DNA of 54,423 nt, taken from assembly GCA_030645455.1 (NCBI GenBank), contig JAUSNA010000018.1:1-54423 (forward strand), given 5' to 3'. The notes beneath the pieces are model-generated. The model saw only the letters and a list, made by a program, of their open reading frames with translations. It was not told the DNA's origin and ran no database searches. Position numbers and translations under genes: made by a program. Below, piece after piece: positions 37,908-50,993 of the stretch. Every line of letters starts with the position of its first letter. Within the stretch, counting starts at the first letter, position 1. This stretch comes from Candidatus Levyibacteriota bacterium. Its GTDB lineage: Bacteria; Patescibacteriota; Microgenomatia; Levybacterales; GWA1-39-11.

Positions 37908-37937
37908 CTATTACCTATTCACTAATTACTATTACCT
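37908..37937 (-). repeat. copy 1 of a ~30-nt stop-codon-rich intergenic element (AGGTAATAGTAATTAGTGAATAGGTAATAG)
   Basis: 27/30 identical to 50329-50358 (plus strand). It lies just downstream of the pnp stop. Confidence 0.6.
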
Positions 37938-37941
37938 AAAC

Positions 37942-44709: not shown

Positions 44710-46317
44710 TTATTGAACAAGCAGAGTGGTAGAAGTATTGGTTGGTGTGTATGTAAATCCGGATTTTACAATATTTGTAACGGTTGCTGTAAATATCCCT
44801 TTTTCTTTCGAACGGACTGAAACTTGAACCTCACCCGTTGATGAAGTATTTTTGGTAAATGCTGTCATCTTTCCTGAAGGTGAAGTAATAGACATTGATA
44901 CCGTAGCTGAGGAAACTACAGCGTTTGTTGAAGTATCGGCTATTCTAGCTTTTGCATAAATTGTTTTGGTGGATGTAAACCCTGTGAAGCGCATAGTAAG
45001 GGCTGTAACAGTCATTTCCTTAGAAACCGGCGTGGATGTAGGAGTGGGGGTAGGACTTGAAATCACGGTTGGAGTAGGAGTAATCGCATCAACTAAAACA
45101 ACCGACTTGTAAGCATTAATTTTTCCCTTTTGCCAATAAGTACCCGTTCCGGCAATCCCATCCGCATTTGATTCAATTTTTTCTCTCACGCATACATTTG
45201 TGGTACAGTCCCCCTTGCCCCATACAAGACCCGCAAGTCCTGCAACAAATGGTGAGGCCATCGATGTTCCAGAAAGAGATGCATACGAATTTCCCTTGAA
45301 TGATGAATATATTGAAACTCCGGGAGCTGCAACATCTACCCATGACCCATAATTTGACCAGCTTGCTTTATTGTTGTTGCTGTCAATTGCAGCGACTGCT
45401 ATAACATTTGTATAGTACGCTGGGTAATGAGGACTTTGCGAAGAGCTGTTTCCGGCCGCAGCAACAATAACCACTCCCTTTTGCCATGCATAATCTATTG
45501 CGTCTTGAAGTGCGGCTGATGAAGACGTACCTCCCAGACTCATATTAATAACTTGTGCTCCGTTGTCAGCAGCCCATACTATGCCATTTACTATCCATGA
45601 ATAATAACCCGACCCGTCATCACCCAGCACCTTTCCATTCATAAGTGACGCATCATAAGCAGTCCCCCCAATACCAACTCCATTATTTGTCGAGGCAGCA
45701 GCAATTCCTGCCACGTGGGTTCCATGACCGTCAACATCAGCCGACGTTGAGCTGGTTGTAAAATTTGCCGATGCAACTATTTTCCCCTGCAAATCACTGT
45801 GAGATGGATCAATACCCGTATCAAGAACTGCAATCTTTACGCTAGATGAACCGGTTGTAACATCCCACGCACTTGTTCCTCCATTTTCCGCAGCATCTAT
45901 TGAGAAAAGTCCCCATTGAGTTGAAAGGGAAGGATCATTTGTAACCATTGATTTTGCCGCAACAGCGTTGGGTTCTGCATATTCTACGTGTGGACTTCTC
46001 CTATATATCTCCACTAATTTGTCAACCATCCCATCAGGTACTCCTAAAACCTCTACCCGGATGGGGTCAATCTTTAGCTTCACCTTTCCACCCAAATCTT
46101 TTACCACTTTTTCACGTATGGATGTTGCTATTTGCGGCTTGAATTTAACAATTATTTCATTTGTAGAAAATTTTTGAGCTTGTGCTTGCCTTGAGGGAAA
46201 AACGAAGTTAAAAATAACTCCGCCAATAAGAGCAAATAATAATGCGTGAATTACGAATGAATGGAGAGAGAAAAACTTATATCGGAACTTTTTTACAGTT
46301 CTCTTTTTAGATTTCAT
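44710..46317 (-). CDS. secreted subtilisin-like serine peptidase (S8) with I9-type propeptide and C-terminal beta-rich domain
   Basis: 535 aa. N-terminal TM/signal, catalytic triad blocks AVLDTGID, HGTHVAG, SGTSMASP, a PTPTVISSPTPTPTSTP linker and a C-terminal Thr/Ser-rich domain. Confidence 0.9.
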   Translation of the reverse strand: MKSKKRTVKKFRYKFFSLHSFVIHALLFALIGGVIFNFVFPSRQAQAQKFSTNEIIVKFKPQIATSIREKVVKDLGGKVKLKIDPIRVEVLGVPDGMVDKLVEIYRRSPHVEYAEPNAVAAKSMVTNDPSLSTQWGLFSIDAAENGGTSAWDVTTGSSSVKIAVLDTGIDPSHSDLQGKIVASANFTTSSTSADVDGHGTHVAGIAAASTNNGVGIGGTAYDASLMNGKVLGDDGSGYYSWIVNGIVWAADNGAQVINMSLGGTSSSAALQDAIDYAWQKGVVIVAAAGNSSSQSPHYPAYYTNVIAVAAIDSNNNKASWSNYGSWVDVAAPGVSIYSSFKGNSYASLSGTSMASPFVAGLAGLVWGKGDCTTNVCVREKIESNADGIAGTGTYWQKGKINAYKSVVLVDAITPTPTVISSPTPTPTSTPVSKEMTVTALTMRFTGFTSTKTIYAKARIADTSTNAVVSSATVSMSITSPSGKMTAFTKNTSSTGEVQVSVRSKEKGIFTATVTNIVKSGFTYTPTNTSTTLLVQ

Positions 46318-46329
46318 TGAATGTACTCT

Positions 46330-46359
46330 ACTTTAAACCGTTTTCAAAAGTAATGTCAA
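46330..46359 (-). promoter_or_regulatory. candidate promoter for the S8 peptidase gene
   Basis: The minus strand reads TTGACA (46359-46354), 18 nt, TAAAGT (46335-46330). The ATG is at 46317, giving a very short 5' UTR. Confidence 0.3.
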
Positions 46360-46402
46360 GAGTAAATACCAGTACTATACAAAAGTATCCACTTTGTCTC
46401 TC

Positions 46403-46432
46403 TTGACGCCCTTGCAGGGGGGGTGTCTATAA
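46403..46432 (+). promoter_or_regulatory. candidate promoter for the RTX-like/repeat-protein transcription unit
   Basis: TTGACG (46403-46408), 18 nt, TATAAT (46427-46432). It diverges from the S8 promoter; both are embedded in CTCTTGAC. Confidence 0.5.
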
Positions 46433-46585
46433 TGGCTTACGTTTGTTTTCTTTGCATTCTGCCCGCGCAAAGAAAAGATTTTATCCTTGCCCGATTATTC
46501 TTGAACCTGCCTGTATTTTATATTTTGAAATGAGGTAGGAAATAACATAGACCTGCCATGAAAAAAAAATTTAGTCTGCCAATCT

Positions 46586-46610
46586 AACAACCGCATGTCG
46601 GTTGTTTTTT
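46586..46610 (+). terminator. intrinsic terminator inside the ~230-nt leader of the RTX-like gene
   Basis: AACAACCG-CATGT-CGGTTGTT followed by TTTT (8-bp stem, 5-nt loop). It ends 62 nt before ATG 46673. Confidence 0.6.
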
Positions 46611-46672
46611 GATGGAATAAAACTAATTCAATGGTTGGCAGGATATCTTAAGGGAATGGGGGTGAAATAAAT

Positions 46673-48241
46673 ATGAATAAACTAAAAAGATTTTTAATAG
46701 GAGCAACAGCAGGAGTAGCAATACTTGCAAGAGTAGTGCTTCCTGCAGGTGCTGATAGCACAGTAGTAATCTCTGGTAATACCTCAGCTGGTGAAAATCA
46801 GCCTGGATGGTTATTTAACAGAGACATTTCTACAACCACTCCATTCGAGTTCAATTCGGCTCAACCTAGTATTGGTACAGGAAGTTTATACGTTATGCCA
46901 ATTGGTGCGAATGCATCAGACAAGTTCATAGCTGAGAACTTTGTAAATACTCCAATTGCAAACGTTAATTCTATTTCTTACGACTTCCGAATAGGAAGTG
47001 GCGGGGATGCGAATGATGATGAACACTTCTATATGAATGTGTATGCAAATTTTGGATCATCACCAGATAACAAGTTTTATGATTGTCGCTATAACGTAGT
47101 GCCAACAACAGGCTCAACTGCCAGTTTTACAACTGTAACATTTAATCCTTCTTTGGCTTATCCCGTAACACAAAGTGGCTCATCACCATTTACGTGTCCG
47201 TCGATACCTAATGATATGAATACTTCAAGCCCTATCTCAACCATAAGAGTTTTTACTCTTAATGTTGGTGACACATCGGTAAATGATCAGGGTTTGGATG
47301 GGTATCTGGATAAAGTTGTAGTTAATCTTGATGATTCATCGGGTATTACTACCTATGATTTTGAACCACTTCCAGAGACGGTCACTGTGACCATTGATAA
47401 ATATATTGATGGTACAAAGGCTACAGCGACAACCGCTGACAACTCAGCTTTTCCGATGAGTGCGACATGGAACGCAACAAATATCGGAGCGGGTTCTGGT
47501 AATTATGATTTGGATGCTGATGGATTCAACAATATCCCAACACCATATCAGGCAATTACTTCAGAAATGACAGCTGGAGCTGATTACACTACGAATGAAG
47601 TAACTGGCGGCTCAGTTGTGGGAGCTAGTTGTTCTACTGGTCAACCATATGCATTGGTTGGGTATACGACTGGGGATACTTTCTCAGAAGCCCAAAGCGG
47701 TACACCAAGTTCTACTATTCCAAGTTTCACAGATCTTGACAGTGATAAATATGTGATTGTCTGGAACATGACTTGTCCAGATGTTACACCAACTCCAAAT
47801 CCTTTTGCTATTCCTGCAGAATGCAGTGCAATAACAGGACTTGGTGCTCCAATCGTTGGTACGAATGGCAGCGAGGTCATCAATGGAACTAATGGAAACG
47901 ACCTCATTTTCGCACTAGGCGGAAGTGATGTAGTCAATGGTAAAGAAGGCAACGACTGTATAGTCGGAGGAGATGGAAGTGATTCTCTCCATGGACAAGG
48001 TGGAAATGACGTAATTCTTGGAGGAAATGGCAGCGATGCCATCCAAGGAGATGCCGGTAATGATTGGCTTTACGGCCAAGATGGAAGCGACTCCGTAAAG
48101 GGAGCTTCCGGCAACGATCATCTTTTCGGAGGAAATGGATCCGACTCTCTCAAGGGAGATGGAGGAACAGATAGCGCTGATGGAGGCGCAAATAGCGATT
48201 CATGCAACGCAGAAACTGAAGATGTTTCCTGCGAAGCATAA
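46673..48241 (+). CDS. secreted protein with C-terminal hemolysin-type (RTX) calcium-binding nonapeptide repeats
   Basis: 522 aa. Sec-type signal MNKLKRFLIGATAGVAILARVVLPAGA. About 11 consecutive 9-residue repeats (GGSDVVNGK EGNDCIVGG DGSDSLHGQ GGNDVILGG NGSDAIQGD AGNDWLYGQ DGSDSVKGA SGNDHLFGG NGSDSLKGD GGTDSADGG). SD GGGGGTGA. Confidence 0.85.
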   Translation: MNKLKRFLIGATAGVAILARVVLPAGADSTVVISGNTSAGENQPGWLFNRDISTTTPFEFNSAQPSIGTGSLYVMPIGANASDKFIAENFVNTPIANVNSISYDFRIGSGGDANDDEHFYMNVYANFGSSPDNKFYDCRYNVVPTTGSTASFTTVTFNPSLAYPVTQSGSSPFTCPSIPNDMNTSSPISTIRVFTLNVGDTSVNDQGLDGYLDKVVVNLDDSSGITTYDFEPLPETVTVTIDKYIDGTKATATTADNSAFPMSATWNATNIGAGSGNYDLDADGFNNIPTPYQAITSEMTAGADYTTNEVTGGSVVGASCSTGQPYALVGYTTGDTFSEAQSGTPSSTIPSFTDLDSDKYVIVWNMTCPDVTPTPNPFAIPAECSAITGLGAPIVGTNGSEVINGTNGNDLIFALGGSDVVNGKEGNDCIVGGDGSDSLHGQGGNDVILGGNGSDAIQGDAGNDWLYGQDGSDSVKGASGNDHLFGGNGSDSLKGDGGTDSADGGANSDSCNAETEDVSCEA

Positions 48242-48910: not shown

Positions 48911-48946
48911 GTAGGCAGGGACATTCCAAAAGTTACTAAGTGTAGA

Positions 48947-48978
48947 AAACCCCCCATTGCCCGGGGGGTTTTTCTTTT
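48947..48978 (+). terminator. intrinsic terminator after the 202-aa repeat-protein gene
   Basis: AAA-CCCCCC-ATTGCCC-GGGGGG-TTTTTCTTTT: a 6 G-C pair stem plus a T-tract. Confidence 0.75.
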
Positions 48979-48994
48979 GTCTAAACCCATAGTT

Positions 48995-49023
48995 TTGACT
49001 TGCGCCCCCATTTCTTATATAAT
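48995..49023 (+). promoter_or_regulatory. near-consensus sigma70 promoter upstream of the GC-enriched cassette
   Basis: TTGACT (48995-49000), 17 nt, TATAAT (49018-49023). Confidence 0.6.
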
Positions 49024-49119
49024 CACACAACTTTTTGCTTAGCTCATACGTTTTAATTTGCTTTAAAACCGATTGGTCTATTTGCTAACTGTAACGCACC
49101 TTTACAACACATTCTTGTA

Positions 49120-49172
49120 GAGTTTTATCTCGCAGAGCCCCGAGTAAATCGGGGTTGTGTGAGATAAAACTC
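49120..49172 (+). promoter_or_regulatory. 53-nt extended hairpin in the cassette leader
   Basis: GAGTTTTATCTC (49120-49131) pairs perfectly with GAGATAAAACTC (49161-49172). There is an inner 6-bp stem CCCCGA/TCGGGG with loop GTAAA. No U-tract follows, so it is not a terminator. Confidence 0.5.
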
Positions 49173-49196
49173 AAATCAACATGAAGGGAAATTACT

Positions 49197-49361
49197 ATGA
49201 AACAGTTAATCATGGACATCGCTGCTGTTCTCATTCTATTTGTAGCTGGACTCATCGAGTTCACCCAATGGAGAAGGGGGTCCCCGCCAAGGGTATGCAT
49301 TATGCTCATTTTAATCAGCATCGCAATAATAATCGTGGTACATATAAGCATCATCACCTAA
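49197..49361 (+). CDS. small two-helix membrane protein (54 aa; below ORF-track cutoff)
   Basis: ATG 49197 is preceded by AAGGGA. Product MKQLIMDIAAVLILFVAGLIEFTQWRRGSPPRVCIMLILISIAIIIVVHISIIT has two hydrophobic helices around a basic loop. I prefer it over the His-rich 86-aa ORF (49181) and the antisense 90-aa ORF. Confidence 0.45.
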   Translation: MKQLIMDIAAVLILFVAGLIEFTQWRRGSPPRVCIMLILISIAIIIVVHISIIT

Positions 49362-49394
49362 GTTCACGACCAGAGTTTGATCTAAGGAGTAGAA

Positions 49395-49589
49395 ATGCCG
49401 GAAGTCACAAGGATCGATATCTTCGAAATGGTTCGGGGTAATTTCCCCAACCTTTCCGAAGAAACACAGCTTGAACTGGCGGATAAAATAAAGTCACTGC
49501 TGGAGTTTGCGGCAAATGATAAGATAACGGACCTTAAATGGGTAAAGAGGGTGATTGATGCCCTGGCCGTATCTGCTCGACTTCAATGA
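49395..49589 (+). CDS. hypothetical protein (64 aa)
   Basis: Strong SD TAAGGAG 5 nt upstream of ATG 49395. Helical-looking, acidic. No motif recognised. Confidence 0.55.
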   Translation: MPEVTRIDIFEMVRGNFPNLSEETQLELADKIKSLLEFAANDKITDLKWVKRVIDALAVSARLQ

Positions 49590-49685
49590 GAGGACTCAGA
49601 ACGAGTCCTAGGACTCTTCTTATCTATCCGAACATCGCATAAATTCACACCCGCGTATAACGCCAGAAGGCCTGAGGAGGCACAG

Positions 49686-50195
49686 TTGAAAAAGATCCTT
49701 GTTCTTATCCTGACCATTGTGGCCGTGTCTTTCACCGCTTGCGGCGACAGACCGGACACTCAAGAACCAAAAGTTCCAACTCAGGCTCCGAGAATTCCAA
49801 CGCCGGCAGCACCCGCTCAGCCAGGCATCACAATGCCTCGTAGTAGTAGTTGCACAAACAGCGCCGTCATACTAACAGGGATTGCCCTGGATCAGACGGT
49901 ATTCGATAGCCAGGTGACTAGTTTCAACCTCTTGGGTTGCTTCACGAGACCGGATATCTTCGTCGAAGCGTCCCCTCAGCTAGGGTACGTCTTGAGTTTG
50001 GCGATTGCCGATCGCAACGCAAAACACCCCTTCAAGGACGTTGAAGAGCTGACGAAGTTCTCCGAGGAATTCCTCACGGATTTCGTAAAAGTCACCCTCG
50101 GTGATTCGTATCTAGTCCTTGAGAACGTCAAAACAACGTACCAATTGAGGCTCTTTCCGGTCATAAAAAAGAAAACGACCGGACCAACTGCCTAA
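49686..50195 (+). CDS. putative lipoprotein (169 aa)
   Basis: TTG start with SD GAGGAGG 5 nt upstream. Signal peptide plus lipobox-like MKKILVLILTIVAVSFTAC-GD, a Pro-rich linker and a globular C-terminus. About 53% GC against a ~39% background. Confidence 0.65.
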   Translation: MKKILVLILTIVAVSFTACGDRPDTQEPKVPTQAPRIPTPAAPAQPGITMPRSSSCTNSAVILTGIALDQTVFDSQVTSFNLLGCFTRPDIFVEASPQLGYVLSLAIADRNAKHPFKDVEELTKFSEEFLTDFVKVTLGDSYLVLENVKTTYQLRLFPVIKKKTTGPTA

Positions 50196-50328
50196 CACAG
50201 GAATGTGGGCCCGCATAGCGGGAAACAAACCCGCCTACGCGAAAGCTACGGCGAGGTAAAGGTGTATCTCGGGGGAGGTGAGGATCAAGCTCTACTTGAT
50301 TTCCTTTCCTCTCCCATACACTAACTCT

Positions 50329-50358
50329 AGGTAATAGTTATTAGTGATTAGGAAATAG
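50329..50358 (+). repeat. copy 2 of the ~30-nt stop-codon-rich intergenic element (AGGTAATAGTTATTAGTGATTAGGAAATAG)
   Basis: 27/30 identical to the reverse complement of 37908-37937. Confidence 0.6.
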
Positions 50359-50374
50359 TAAAGATCAGAAAAAG

Positions 50375-50406
50375 ATTGCTTCTCCCGATTTAATCGGGAT
50401 CGCAAT
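50375..50406. repeat. REP-like nested hairpin between the convergent lipoprotein and sortase genes
   Basis: ATTGC-TTC-TCCCGA-TTTAA-TCGGGA-TC-GCAAT. The outer GATTGCTTC...GCAATGACA flanks resemble a palindromic word element I recall as common in uncultivated-bacteria genomes. Confidence 0.45.
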
Positions 50407-50438
50407 GACATAAATCCACAATACTTAATACGTGATAC

Positions 50439-50993
50439 TTATTCCGGATTTGCAAAAATCAACAATCGTTGCAAGGCTGTACCTATTGGTGTACACGTCT
50501 GCAGAATAAGAACGTCCCCCTGAGGTTCTGTCAAATACTTAACTTCATTTGGCCAAACTGTTTTTTTGTTAATAACTTTATACTTATACTCCTCCCCATT
50601 CATTCTGATAATAATAGGGTCCCCTCTATCTATCAGCTCCAGCTTGAAAAAAGCTGTATTATAACGTGTAATTCTCCACGGAACATCCGATGAATGAGCA
50701 AAGAGAAAGACAGTCTCCCCCTCCCCGGGCAATGCTGAATTTTTTGCGTGTGCTACTCCATTTCTTAGCTCCAGTAAATACTCTTTTTCATTGAATGGAT
50801 CGACACTAGGTATAATTTTTGAAAATACTTTTAGACTTGGGATTTCAATTGAGAAATTTTCTGATATTTTTTGCTCTTCCGTTATTTTTGGAGGAAATAA
50901 TAATTCTTTGAAATACGGGTAATAGATAAAAAGGAATCCTAAAAGAGAAAGCGCCATCAAGGCGCTTCCGGTGTTTTTTTTGAGGTTGTGCAT
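50439..50993 (-). CDS. sortase family transpeptidase (second copy)
   Basis: 184 aa. N-terminal TM helix, His in VFLFAHSS, Cys in LILQTCTPIG, Arg in LQRLLIFA. It starts 27 nt downstream of the LPATG protein gene. Confidence 0.85.
   Translation of the reverse strand: MHNLKKNTGSALMALSLLGFLFIYYPYFKELLFPPKITEEQKISENFSIEIPSLKVFSKIIPSVDPFNEKEYLLELRNGVAHAKNSALPGEGETVFLFAHSSDVPWRITRYNTAFFKLELIDRGDPIIIRMNGEEYKYKVINKKTVWPNEVKYLTEPQGDVLILQTCTPIGTALQRLLIFANPE

Follow-up and report, generated by a model that had tools for sequence, protein, structure and literature searches.

A Probable Framed, Exchangeable Mini-Operon at a Hypervariable Accessory Locus of a Microgenomates Genus

Introduction

Patescibacteria, also referred to as the Candidate Phyla Radiation (CPR), have tiny genomes and depend on contact with other cells, but little is known about how surface and accessory genes are varied in these bacteria. 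The subject of this work is a GC-rich cassette of three small genes at positions 49197–50300 of a 54,423-nucleotide contig from Candidatus Levyibacteriota bacterium (assembly GCA_030645455.1, contig JAUSNA010000018.1). This stretch, hereafter called the window, is the entire contig C24 of a 1.2-Mb genome (G000, 38.7% GC). Neighbors of the cassette are IF-2, NusA, surface-protein and sortase genes. An earlier interpretation of the letters alone, here called the sequence-only reading, took the compositional break at the cassette as a sign of horizontal acquisition or of a chimeric metagenomic join. Comparison with relatives makes it probable that the stretch represents one allele of a hypervariable accessory locus, that is, a framed and exchangeable mini-operon within a Microgenomates genus. 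The comparison shows presence and absence of the locus, replacement of its cargo between near-identical genomes, and a mosaic cargo with breakpoints at junction elements.

Architecture of the Unit

The three open reading frames (ORFs) and their Shine–Dalgarno (SD) sites are located as the sequence-only reading had claimed, and it correctly placed them between a plus-strand gene for a repeat protein of 202 amino acids (aa) and a minus-strand sortase gene. What it missed are the conserved hairpins that bound the cassette and the inverted complementarity between the sequences ahead of and behind the genes, here termed leader and trailer. In every unit of this type, the parts follow the same order: promoter, leader box, 5' hairpin, genes split by junction elements, trailer and 3' hairpin (Table 1).

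Table 1. Features of the cassette and its boundaries in the window.
Feature	Position	Strand	Remarks
Intrinsic terminator of 202-aa repeat gene	48945–48973	+	Terminator scan; in empty and occupied sites; left host boundary
Sigma-70-type promoter TTGACT-17-TATAAT	48995–49023	+	11/12 consensus matches; missing from empty sites
AT-rich leader	49030–49095	+	TTTTAAnnTGCTTnAAAAC-like conserved motif at ~49051–49069; 68% identity between G000 and G008
Leader box GCACCTTTACAACACATTCTTG	49096–49117	+	Core invariant in all units; complementary to trailer
Half-site A CACCTTTAC	49097–49105	+	Within leader box
Half-site B CACATTCTTG	49108–49117	+	Within leader box
5' hairpin, ~53 nt	49120–49172	+	~25 nt upstream of first start codon
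ORF1, 54-aa two-helix hydrophobic peptide	49197–49361	+	SD AAGGGA at 49184–49189
Junction 1: GTTCACGACC motif, then SD TAAGGAG	49362–49389	+	SD at 49383–49389
ORF2, 64-aa protein without hydrophobic segment	49395–49589	+	Orphan
Hairpin GAGGACTC..GAGTCCT	49590–49609	+	3' of ORF2, inside 49590–49682
Junction 2: AATTCACACC; small hairpin GCGTATAACGC; GCCTGAGGAGGCA	49642–49651; 49653–49663; 49670–49682	+	
ORF3, 169-aa lipoprotein	49686–50195	+	
Trailer half-site B' CAGGAATGTG	50198–50207	+	Complementary to B
Two small GC hairpins CCCGCATAGCGGG; CGCCTACGCGAAAGCTACGGCG	50210–50254	+	Between B' and A'; homologous pair in L111
Trailer half-site A' GTAAAGGTG	50256–50264	+	Complementary to A
3' hairpin GGTGTA-GGGGGAGG..stem-loop..CCTCTCCC-ATACAC	50261–50322	+	No T-run; model R1, 82.6 bits
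AT-rich, stop-codon-rich short repeat	50328–50358		Between unit and sortase gene; 90% copy at 37908–37938; copies in sister genomes
Terminator-like hairpin of sortase operon	50364–50389	-	Right host boundary

These parts recur across units in recognizable form. In other units, TATAAT or TGTATAAT stands 65–85 nt upstream of the box, which reads GCACCTTnAnAA..CACATTCTTG at all occupied sites. Each internal gene of all units is preceded by a junction element composed of (A)ATTCACGACC, a variable small GC hairpin, CCAAA.. and GCCTGAGGAGGCA, which stand ahead of the start codon. Downstream of the final gene, CAAGAATGTG (50198–50207 in the window) is followed by one or two small hairpins and nAAGGTG (50256–50264), and then by the 3' hairpin of the general form GGTGTA-GGGGGAGG...CCTCCCCC-ATACAC, which abuts or overlaps the sortase stop codon in G012, G003 and G008.

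Some further details of the units were recorded. Otherwise unrelated products of the last gene end in ..GPTA, ..GSTA or ..NVTA (window 50181–50207; G002, G003, G009, P0009, P0011), because the ORF enters or stops just before the trailer motif CAAGAAyGTGACAGCGTAA; hence, these residues are dictated by the frame. In the unit of L215, a distant relative (2810–2990), an insertion of ~190 nt with GTCATTCTGAG...GAAGAATC-type repeats occupies the loop of the 5' hairpin, the arms of which are still complementary. The AT-rich repeat at the right border (TAATAGTTATTAGTGATTAGG..., with stop codons in all frames) is found beside GC-rich units and elsewhere (G002:C31, G009:C4, C54:6970–7000), and a second AT-rich motif, GATACTTAATAC, lies at 50410–50440 of the window and beside the unit on contig C25.

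Base Composition

The GC content of 49197–50300 is 48.8%, compared to a mean of 39.9% for the window (standard deviation 2.7% in 1-kb intervals). Only 0.09% of the 1104-bp intervals in the window are as GC-rich, which places it in the top 0.1% of intervals of equal size, and the stretch represents the GC maximum of the window at both the 500-bp and the 1-kb scale. The GC enrichment described in the sequence-only reading is thus real, but its range of 45–60% is too high for the first third of the cassette, with 40.5–55% GC in 200-nt intervals. The value of about 53% that it gave for the lipoprotein gene has to be corrected to 50.6%; the genes for the 54-aa and 64-aa products have 42.4% and 45.6% GC, respectively. 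The anomaly is strongest at third codon positions: the GC content at these positions (GC3) amounts to 0.55, 0.48 and 0.57 for the three genes in order, compared to a host reference of 0.32±0.034 with a maximum of 0.39 (33 ORFs of the window with at least 200 aa), in line with the GC3-rich codon use described for the lipoprotein gene. The cassette is not unique in its genome, since G000 contains about 35 islands with a GC content of 52% or more.

As had been noted, no integrase or transposase gene is found near the cassette within the window, and no direct repeats flank it. A structured RNA gene behind the GC peak was considered as well and rejected, since no Rfam family matched at gathering score and only terminator-like noise (E up to 5) was obtained. 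No tRNA or tmRNA was found at the peak.

The Locus in Related Genomes

An orthologous sortase gene is present in 10 of the 13 genomes of the genus, in which the gap between this gene and the repeat-protein gene was compared. Six of these sites are occupied, three are empty and one has other content. In G004, G006 and G010, the gap is only 76–136 bp long and contains nothing but the terminator, and that of G011 holds an unrelated low-GC gene. The gaps of G000, G002, G003, G008, G009 and G012 span 0.6–1.75 kb with 44–50% GC and harbor differing small plus-strand genes. In a metagenome scan based on a sortase alignment, nine further sites proved empty and five occupied, and look-ups of cargo homologues led to more occupied loci (L107, L139, L140, L144 and L215). 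Overall, the site is empty (70–136 bp) in 12 relatives, and the units have the same orientation in all 14 assemblies. Among sister genomes, some are therefore occupied and some empty, with a cargo that varies from one to the next.

The pair G003 and G009 is particularly instructive. Up to the terminator, their left flanks share 95.4% identity across 3743 bp (~3.7 kb). Beyond it, only pieces of the frame are common to both and the cargo is unrelated, while the sortase genes are 83% identical. A near-identical flank next to unrelated cargo identifies the site as a hotspot of gain, loss and replacement and as a recombination breakpoint. Within units, an identical junction hairpin, GTTCGGGGCAACCCGAAC, is located upstream of three different genes, which encode a lipoprotein in G003, a Zn-ribbon protein in L140 and a 113-aa protein in G009, and the lipoproteins of G000 and G003 are alike only in the region before the start codon and in the signal peptide. 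This points to crossovers within conserved elements. Furthermore, L140 combines a leader of the G000 type with a trailer of the G003 type and resembles a recombinant frame. Replacement breakpoints between close relatives thus fall into frame and junction motifs (G003 versus G009; chimeric frames of L140 and of the G007 unit described below).

The surroundings of the cassette hold additional variation. In the distant relatives L122, L123 and L125, the same gap contains a low-GC gene for an IS200-like Y1 transposase (PF01797, E=5e-9, 6e-8), and the gap between the repeat-protein and sortase genes hence attracts different kinds of insertion. A second variable spot lies beside the cassette at 44710–48241 of the window, where a minus-strand subtilase gene (PF00082) and a gene for a 522-aa RTX-repeat protein are inserted between NusA and the 202-aa repeat gene; in most relatives NusA directly adjoins the repeat-protein gene, and G008 carries a gene for a 297-aa RTX-like protein there. 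A gene for a 97-aa GIY-YIG protein is located between the sortase and LPXTG-protein genes in L139 (5097–5390) and L144 (5042–5335) and is missing from the window. The sister metagenome-assembled genomes (MAGs) CAZAJO01, CAZEEU01, CAZEGF01, CAYRKM01 and CAZDED01 are ~1.2 Mb in size and rich in sortases, and their public label 'uncultured Gammaproteobacteria' looks wrong.

Cargo Genes and Their Products

Cargo gene families recur in different combinations between units. Proteins resembling the RpoA C-terminal domain (PF03118, E=3.6e-16) are encoded in G002, G003, L107, L139, L140 and L144 and occur as fusions in L111 and L115. Peptides of 45–55 aa with two hydrophobic segments are found in G000, G012, G002, L112, L139 and L140, so that the layout of ORF1 is shared with five other units. 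Lipoproteins are encoded in G000, G003, L107 and L215, Zn-ribbon proteins in L112, L139 and L140, and DUF4177-like proteins (weak matches) in G008 and G009. In addition, various units carry orphan genes.

Searches of the three products of the window against Pfam, PHROGs and PADLOC returned nothing but a weak PHROG match confined to the signal peptide. For the 64-aa protein, no homologue was found among 5.8 billion proteins, and searches of the PDB by sequence gave nothing. The lipoprotein fared better with five homologues among billions of proteins, one of them close (58% identity) and four remote. For two of these homologues, from two other lineages, the contigs were usable, and both genes occupy the same frame at the same locus. 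In fact, every cargo homologue that could be placed belongs to this same locus, and no cargo was found in viral contigs or PHROGs.

The lipoprotein comprises a lipobox (FTAC|GD), a proline-rich tether of ~35 aa and an alpha/beta domain of ~100 aa. Its signal peptide MKKILVLILTIVAVSFTAC|GD has the invariant cysteine that defines bacterial lipoproteins, and this cysteine and the following GD.PD are invariant in the four aligned homologues. An AlphaFold2 model of the domain from four sequences reached a predicted local distance difference test (pLDDT) of 80–95 with a predicted beta-beta-alpha-alpha-beta order, and a model from two sequences was useless (pLDDT 41). Foldseek comparison of the domain with the PDB and BFVD yielded no match with E<0.3, and low-scoring T-fold-like matches are not meaningful. 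The three products, a membrane peptide with two helices, a small protein of soluble type and a lipoprotein on a tether, most likely act at the cell envelope.

Frame and RNA Structure

Two covariance models were built from the frame, R1 for the 3' hairpin and R2 for the box together with the 5' hairpin. Within the genus, both match only this locus, once per genome. R2 scores 43–94 bits in 13 units, and R1 is found only at this locus, once each in 5 of 49 genomes of the family. The frame motifs are likewise unique within G000. A scan of the genome collection for the box pattern returned only members of the genus and chance matches, and among 58 pattern matches in the viral contigs of IMG/VR none was confirmed by the models. 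A multi-copy mobile element was thus rejected as a candidate, given that R1, R2 and the motif scans match this locus only; the frame is locus-specific.

Covariation argues for two predicted structures, the 5' hairpin and a helix of ~18 bp between leader and trailer. In the 5' hairpin of 13 units, 94.6% of the cells in the alignment are paired, compared to 73.6% after shuffling and 30–57% in slid controls. Both sides have changed in 14 of 20 pairs, and none of 500 shuffles reaches the observed values. At one position, G-U is present in 9 of the 13 units, which suggests folding of the sense strand rather than a double-stranded site for a protein. For the 3' hairpin, with five sequences, 5 of 25 pairs are compensated.

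The leader box is the reverse complement of both trailer half-sites (~18 nt in total). Across 11 units, 90.5% of the cells of the resulting helix are paired, compared to 84.8% after shuffling and 34–54% in slid controls. Eight pairs have changed on both sides, compared to an expected 2.7, and this number is not reached in any of 500 shuffles. Compensated variants of both half-sites occur in L112, L111 and L215, among them the leader/trailer combinations GCACATTCA/TGAATGTGC and CATATTCTTG/CAAGAATATG in L112, ATCATTTCTG/CAGAAATGAT in L111 and TGCACTT/AAGTGCA in L215. The variable base pair of half-site A is T:A in G000 and G012, G:C in G002, G003 and G009, and C:G in L107 and L112. The long-range helix also appears in the minimum free energy (MFE) folds of 13 of 13 whole units; little weight is given to these folds, because chance pairing of the ends proved frequent in the controls (see below).

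Persistent GC3 Excess of the Cargo

In all lineages, the GC3 of the cargo (0.47–0.61) exceeds that of flanking host genes (0.25–0.39), and the GC3 richness holds for lipoprotein homologues down to ~34–41% protein identity. A single recent import is therefore unlikely. Hence, the horizontal acquisition proposed by the sequence-only reading stands as far as gain, loss and exchange are concerned (12 empty relatives, differing cargo), but the compositional break is not evidence of a recent import from a GC-rich donor. The excess is maintained in one of three ways, namely by GC-biased gene conversion at a recombination hotspot, by a separate gene pool or by selection. GC-biased gene conversion in bacteria was put forward as a hypothesis by Lassalle et al. 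(2015, PMC4450053), for which the GC3 excess of the cargo offers a direct test.

Among the GC islands of G000 (C1:611–1633, C40:3947–5077, C9:16271–17593, C68:18628–20450 and about 30 others), many are of a different kind from the framed units and consist of one larger gene, in several cases with 57–59% GC. According to their N-terminal sequences, the latter include GAPDH-like and fructose bisphosphate (FBP) aldolase/phosphatase-like genes. They look like separate imports or contamination, which is estimated at 3.8% for the MAG.

Other Loci of the Same Design

At least two further loci of G000 are built like the cassette. The first, C31:19.7–21.1 kb, is occupied in G000, G004, G006 and G007 (~1 kb, 55–65% GC) and empty in G011 and G012. 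The cargo of G000 is unrelated to that of the other three genomes, and the units have their promoter (TGTATAAT), box (TTCTTTGAAAATT..), 5' hairpin and terminator in common. Here, too, leader and trailer show compensated pairs in G000, G004 and G006, with the combinations AATTGAGATCAC/GTGATCTCAATT, TTAGATCACG/CGTGATCTAA and TTAGGTTATC/GATAACCTAA. The unit of G007 is a chimera. At the empty site of this type in G011 (L214, G011:C17:8100–8450), about six tandem copies of a ~24-nt unit, GCTACGCTAAGCAAAGCTTG..., were observed.

The second locus, C54:7.0–9.0 kb, lies between two tRNA-Thr genes and comprises two tandem units that are missing from sister genomes. Another unit at this hotspot, G001:C35, has a 5' hairpin similar to that of R2. 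The units on C25 and C54 show inverted leader/trailer matches of 11–12 nt with unrelated sequence. No cargo is shared between the hotspots of G000, and tblastn matched only the true rpoA.

Proposed Mechanism and Alternative Explanations

In the proposed model, a self-contained transcription unit is inserted between two convergent host terminators and runs from a promoter and a structured leader of ~165 nt through one to four small genes to a structured trailer with the 3' hairpin behind it. What is conserved is the non-coding frame, made up of leader box, 5' hairpin, the junction element ahead of every internal gene, trailer and 3' hairpin. The genes within it are swapped among related lineages, probably by homologous recombination via the conserved frame and junction sequences. 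In the mRNA, the helix of leader and trailer would form and close the transcript, which may shield the ends from RNases or create a double-stranded processing site. Conceivably, this would render expression independent of cargo or context. The GC3 excess would result from frequent recombination, i.e., GC-biased gene conversion, or from a separate gene pool and not from a recent foreign origin.

Several points weigh against the proposed unit and its closing helix. At the variable position of helix A, the bases do not pair in L139, L140 and L111. The mismatches of the long-range helix (about four G-U, two A-C and two transversions) reveal no clear preference for the sense strand, and the complementarity of leader and trailer could serve a DNA recombinase instead. 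MFE folding often pairs the ends of long RNAs by chance: 12 or more end pairs were obtained for 14 of 60 segments drawn at random from the genome, and 5 of 13 units still showed them after their leader had been shuffled. The 3' hairpin has no T-run and is hence only a putative terminator, and both ends of the transcript, like its pairing in vivo, are predictions from the DNA. Covariation counts overstate the number of independent events, because the units are related to one another, and all sequences belong to a limited clade known from MAGs and short contigs. Finally, inverted matches of at least 11 nt around all GC islands are only weakly enriched, at 20% compared to 10% in controls (~two-fold). 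The leader–trailer helix most likely acts in RNA.

The strongest competitor, though an unlikely one, is an ordinary recent islet, in which a moron-like unit was imported once from a GC-richer donor (a phage, a plasmid or the host of the episymbiont) and its GC content has not yet drifted. The GC and GC3 values that differ from those of the neighbors, the presence of an own promoter and end hairpin, and the absence from many relatives would all be accounted for. Other GC-rich single-gene islands of the genome, such as those with the GAPDH and FBP aldolase/phosphatase-like genes, do look imported, and genes are often transferred horizontally in Patescibacteria, which frequently carry genomic islands (PMC12455944). 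Yet, no cargo homologue was found outside the locus and the clade, nor did viral collections or PHROGs contain one. The members of the lipoprotein family are down to ~34–41% identity at the same locus and are still GC3-rich, and the frame stays constant while the cargo changes.

Less probable still is an inverton, in which the half-sites would be inverted repeats of a site-specific recombinase. By inverting the segment with the genes, while promoter and end hairpin stay in place, this enzyme would switch the genes on or off. The inverted repeats do bracket all genes and lie inside the promoter and the 3' hairpin, concerted changes of half-sites are also expected from recombination between repeats, and the genome encodes three tyrosine recombinases and one large serine recombinase. 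However, only one orientation is seen in 14 consensus assemblies, and no recombinase gene is located nearby. Furthermore, the right-hand copy is split by 10–45 nt of hairpins, which is unusual for the core site of a recombinase, the repeats tolerate G-U-type mismatches, and the adjoining 5' hairpin is clearly folded from the sense strand.

We regard it as very improbable that the unit is a non-autonomous element moved in trans, either a cassette with passenger genes between inverted repeats, similar to mobile insertion cassettes (MIC) or miniature inverted-repeat transposable elements (MITE), or a single-strand element of the IS200/IS605 type with hairpin ends. Such an element would be in keeping with hairpins at both ends, with inverted repeats that look terminal, and with the Y1 transposase gene at the same spot in more distant relatives. 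There is, however, a single copy per genome that is always at one locus (compare the counts for R1), the inverted repeats do not form the outer ends, since promoter and 3' hairpin lie beyond them, the hairpins at the two ends are mutually unrelated, G000 has no Y1 transposase, and no target duplication was seen.

An even slimmer chance is given to an integron-like cassette array without integrase (CALIN), with junction and end hairpins as attC sites. The small, mostly orphan genes of the unit, each with a conserved element and a variable hairpin, the gene order shuffled between relatives, and the end of the last ORF, GCCTAA-C, which resembles an inverse core site, are reminiscent of such arrays. 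Inspection by eye, however, revealed no paired RYYYAAC...GTTRRRY cores, with GCCTAAC present once and no GTTRRRY partner, and PF00589 has no match in the window and three on other contigs, assigned at the level of this family. Moreover, the elements stand upstream of each gene together with the ribosome-binding site, and a promoter of its own and a constant end module belong to the unit. Last and least probable is an assembly artefact in which DNA of a GC-richer organism was chimerically joined into the contig: against the compositional break and the estimated contamination of the MAG stand the same frame, architecture and GC-rich cargo at this locus in 14 assemblies that were made independently in different studies, which rule out the chimeric join that the sequence-only reading had considered, as well as frame sequences that run continuously from host-like into GC-rich parts, and homologous cargo in the same frame elsewhere. 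The stretch is real and not an assembly error.

The framed mini-operon may also be part of something larger, which we propose only tentatively. Microgenomates could possess a family of framed cassettes at several hotspots (at least three in this genome), each with a conserved frame of promoter-leader and trailer-hairpin, the halves of which pair and so close the mRNA. In this reading, the frame would serve relatives as recombination arms for swapping genes and also as an RNA device (for end protection or as a double-strand processing site) that makes expression independent of the cargo, the cargo consists of small envelope and transcription-related genes, and the GC3 excess is the footprint of gene conversion. 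If true, GC-biased gene conversion at recombination hotspots would have left an unusually clean trace here for a bacterium.

Already the single locus offers a compact and repeatable route to vary genes, with a fixed regulatory frame, exchangeable small genes and several sites in the genome. If the leader–trailer helix works in RNA, it would constitute a natural 'insulated expression cassette' of use to RNA biology and engineering. For annotation, a caution follows: a sharp GC break in CPR genomes need not mean recent foreign DNA or mis-assembly.

Comparison with Known Systems

A literature search returned no description of framed cassettes of this kind, and known systems share individual traits with them. 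Integron cassettes and CALINs consist of small promoter-less genes between conserved elements with variable hairpins, in shuffled order. The cassette likewise contains small promoter-less genes in shuffled order between elements with variable hairpins. In contrast to integrons, these elements precede the genes and contain the ribosome-binding site, both ends of the unit are constant, and no attC cores or integrase were seen.

Pairing between 5' and 3' parts of a transcript is familiar from bacteria as well. In the hok mRNA (fold-back-inhibition element, fbi), the RNase III-cut stalks of rRNA operons, and the 5' and 3' untranslated regions of icaR, it controls stability, processing or translation. 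As in these cases, the sequences before and after the functional part of the cassette are complementary and would close the transcript. Unlike there, the predicted helix encloses whole exchangeable coding cassettes, and helices of this type, each with its own sequence, are predicted for several loci.

The closest described systems are phage morons and the promoter-early stem-loop (PeSL) cassettes of T4-type phages. Morons are added units with their own promoter and terminator and a divergent GC content that are missing from relatives (Cumby, Davidson and Maxwell 2012, PMC3594210). Similarly, the cassette differs in GC from its neighbors, sits between conserved genes and is missing from close relatives. 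Its predicted promoter has 11 of 12 consensus matches, and its end hairpin is conserved but has no T-run, so that it would be only a putative independent transcription unit. Moron products are typically small envelope proteins, which may be cited as a further likeness. In contrast to morons, the cassette is not part of a prophage, with no phage genes nearby and no PHROG matches, its frame is constant while the cargo changes, and the GC difference persists across old lineages.

In the PeSL cassettes of the hyperplastic regions of T4-type phages, short conserved promoter/stem-loop motifs are reported to bracket small, mostly orphan genes, and insertions, deletions and replacements between close relatives to break within these motifs (Arbiol et al. 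2010, PMC2839356; Comeau et al. 2014, PMC4122927). Both systems have a conserved regulatory motif at the borders of variable genes (14 units here), and the breakpoints of the cassette likewise fall into the junction hairpin and the frame. The two differ in that the cassette resides in a cellular CPR chromosome and not in a phage, that one promoter serves a polycistronic unit with promoter-less junctions (hairpin and ribosome-binding site), that leader and trailer are mutually complementary, and that the cargo is GC3-enriched. PeSL cassettes are reported to form mini-circles, and none are known for the cassette. Taken together, four traits set the cassette apart from morons and PeSL cassettes, namely the setting in a cellular CPR chromosome, the inter-gene junctions under one promoter, the predicted leader–trailer helix and the persistent GC3 excess of the cargo.

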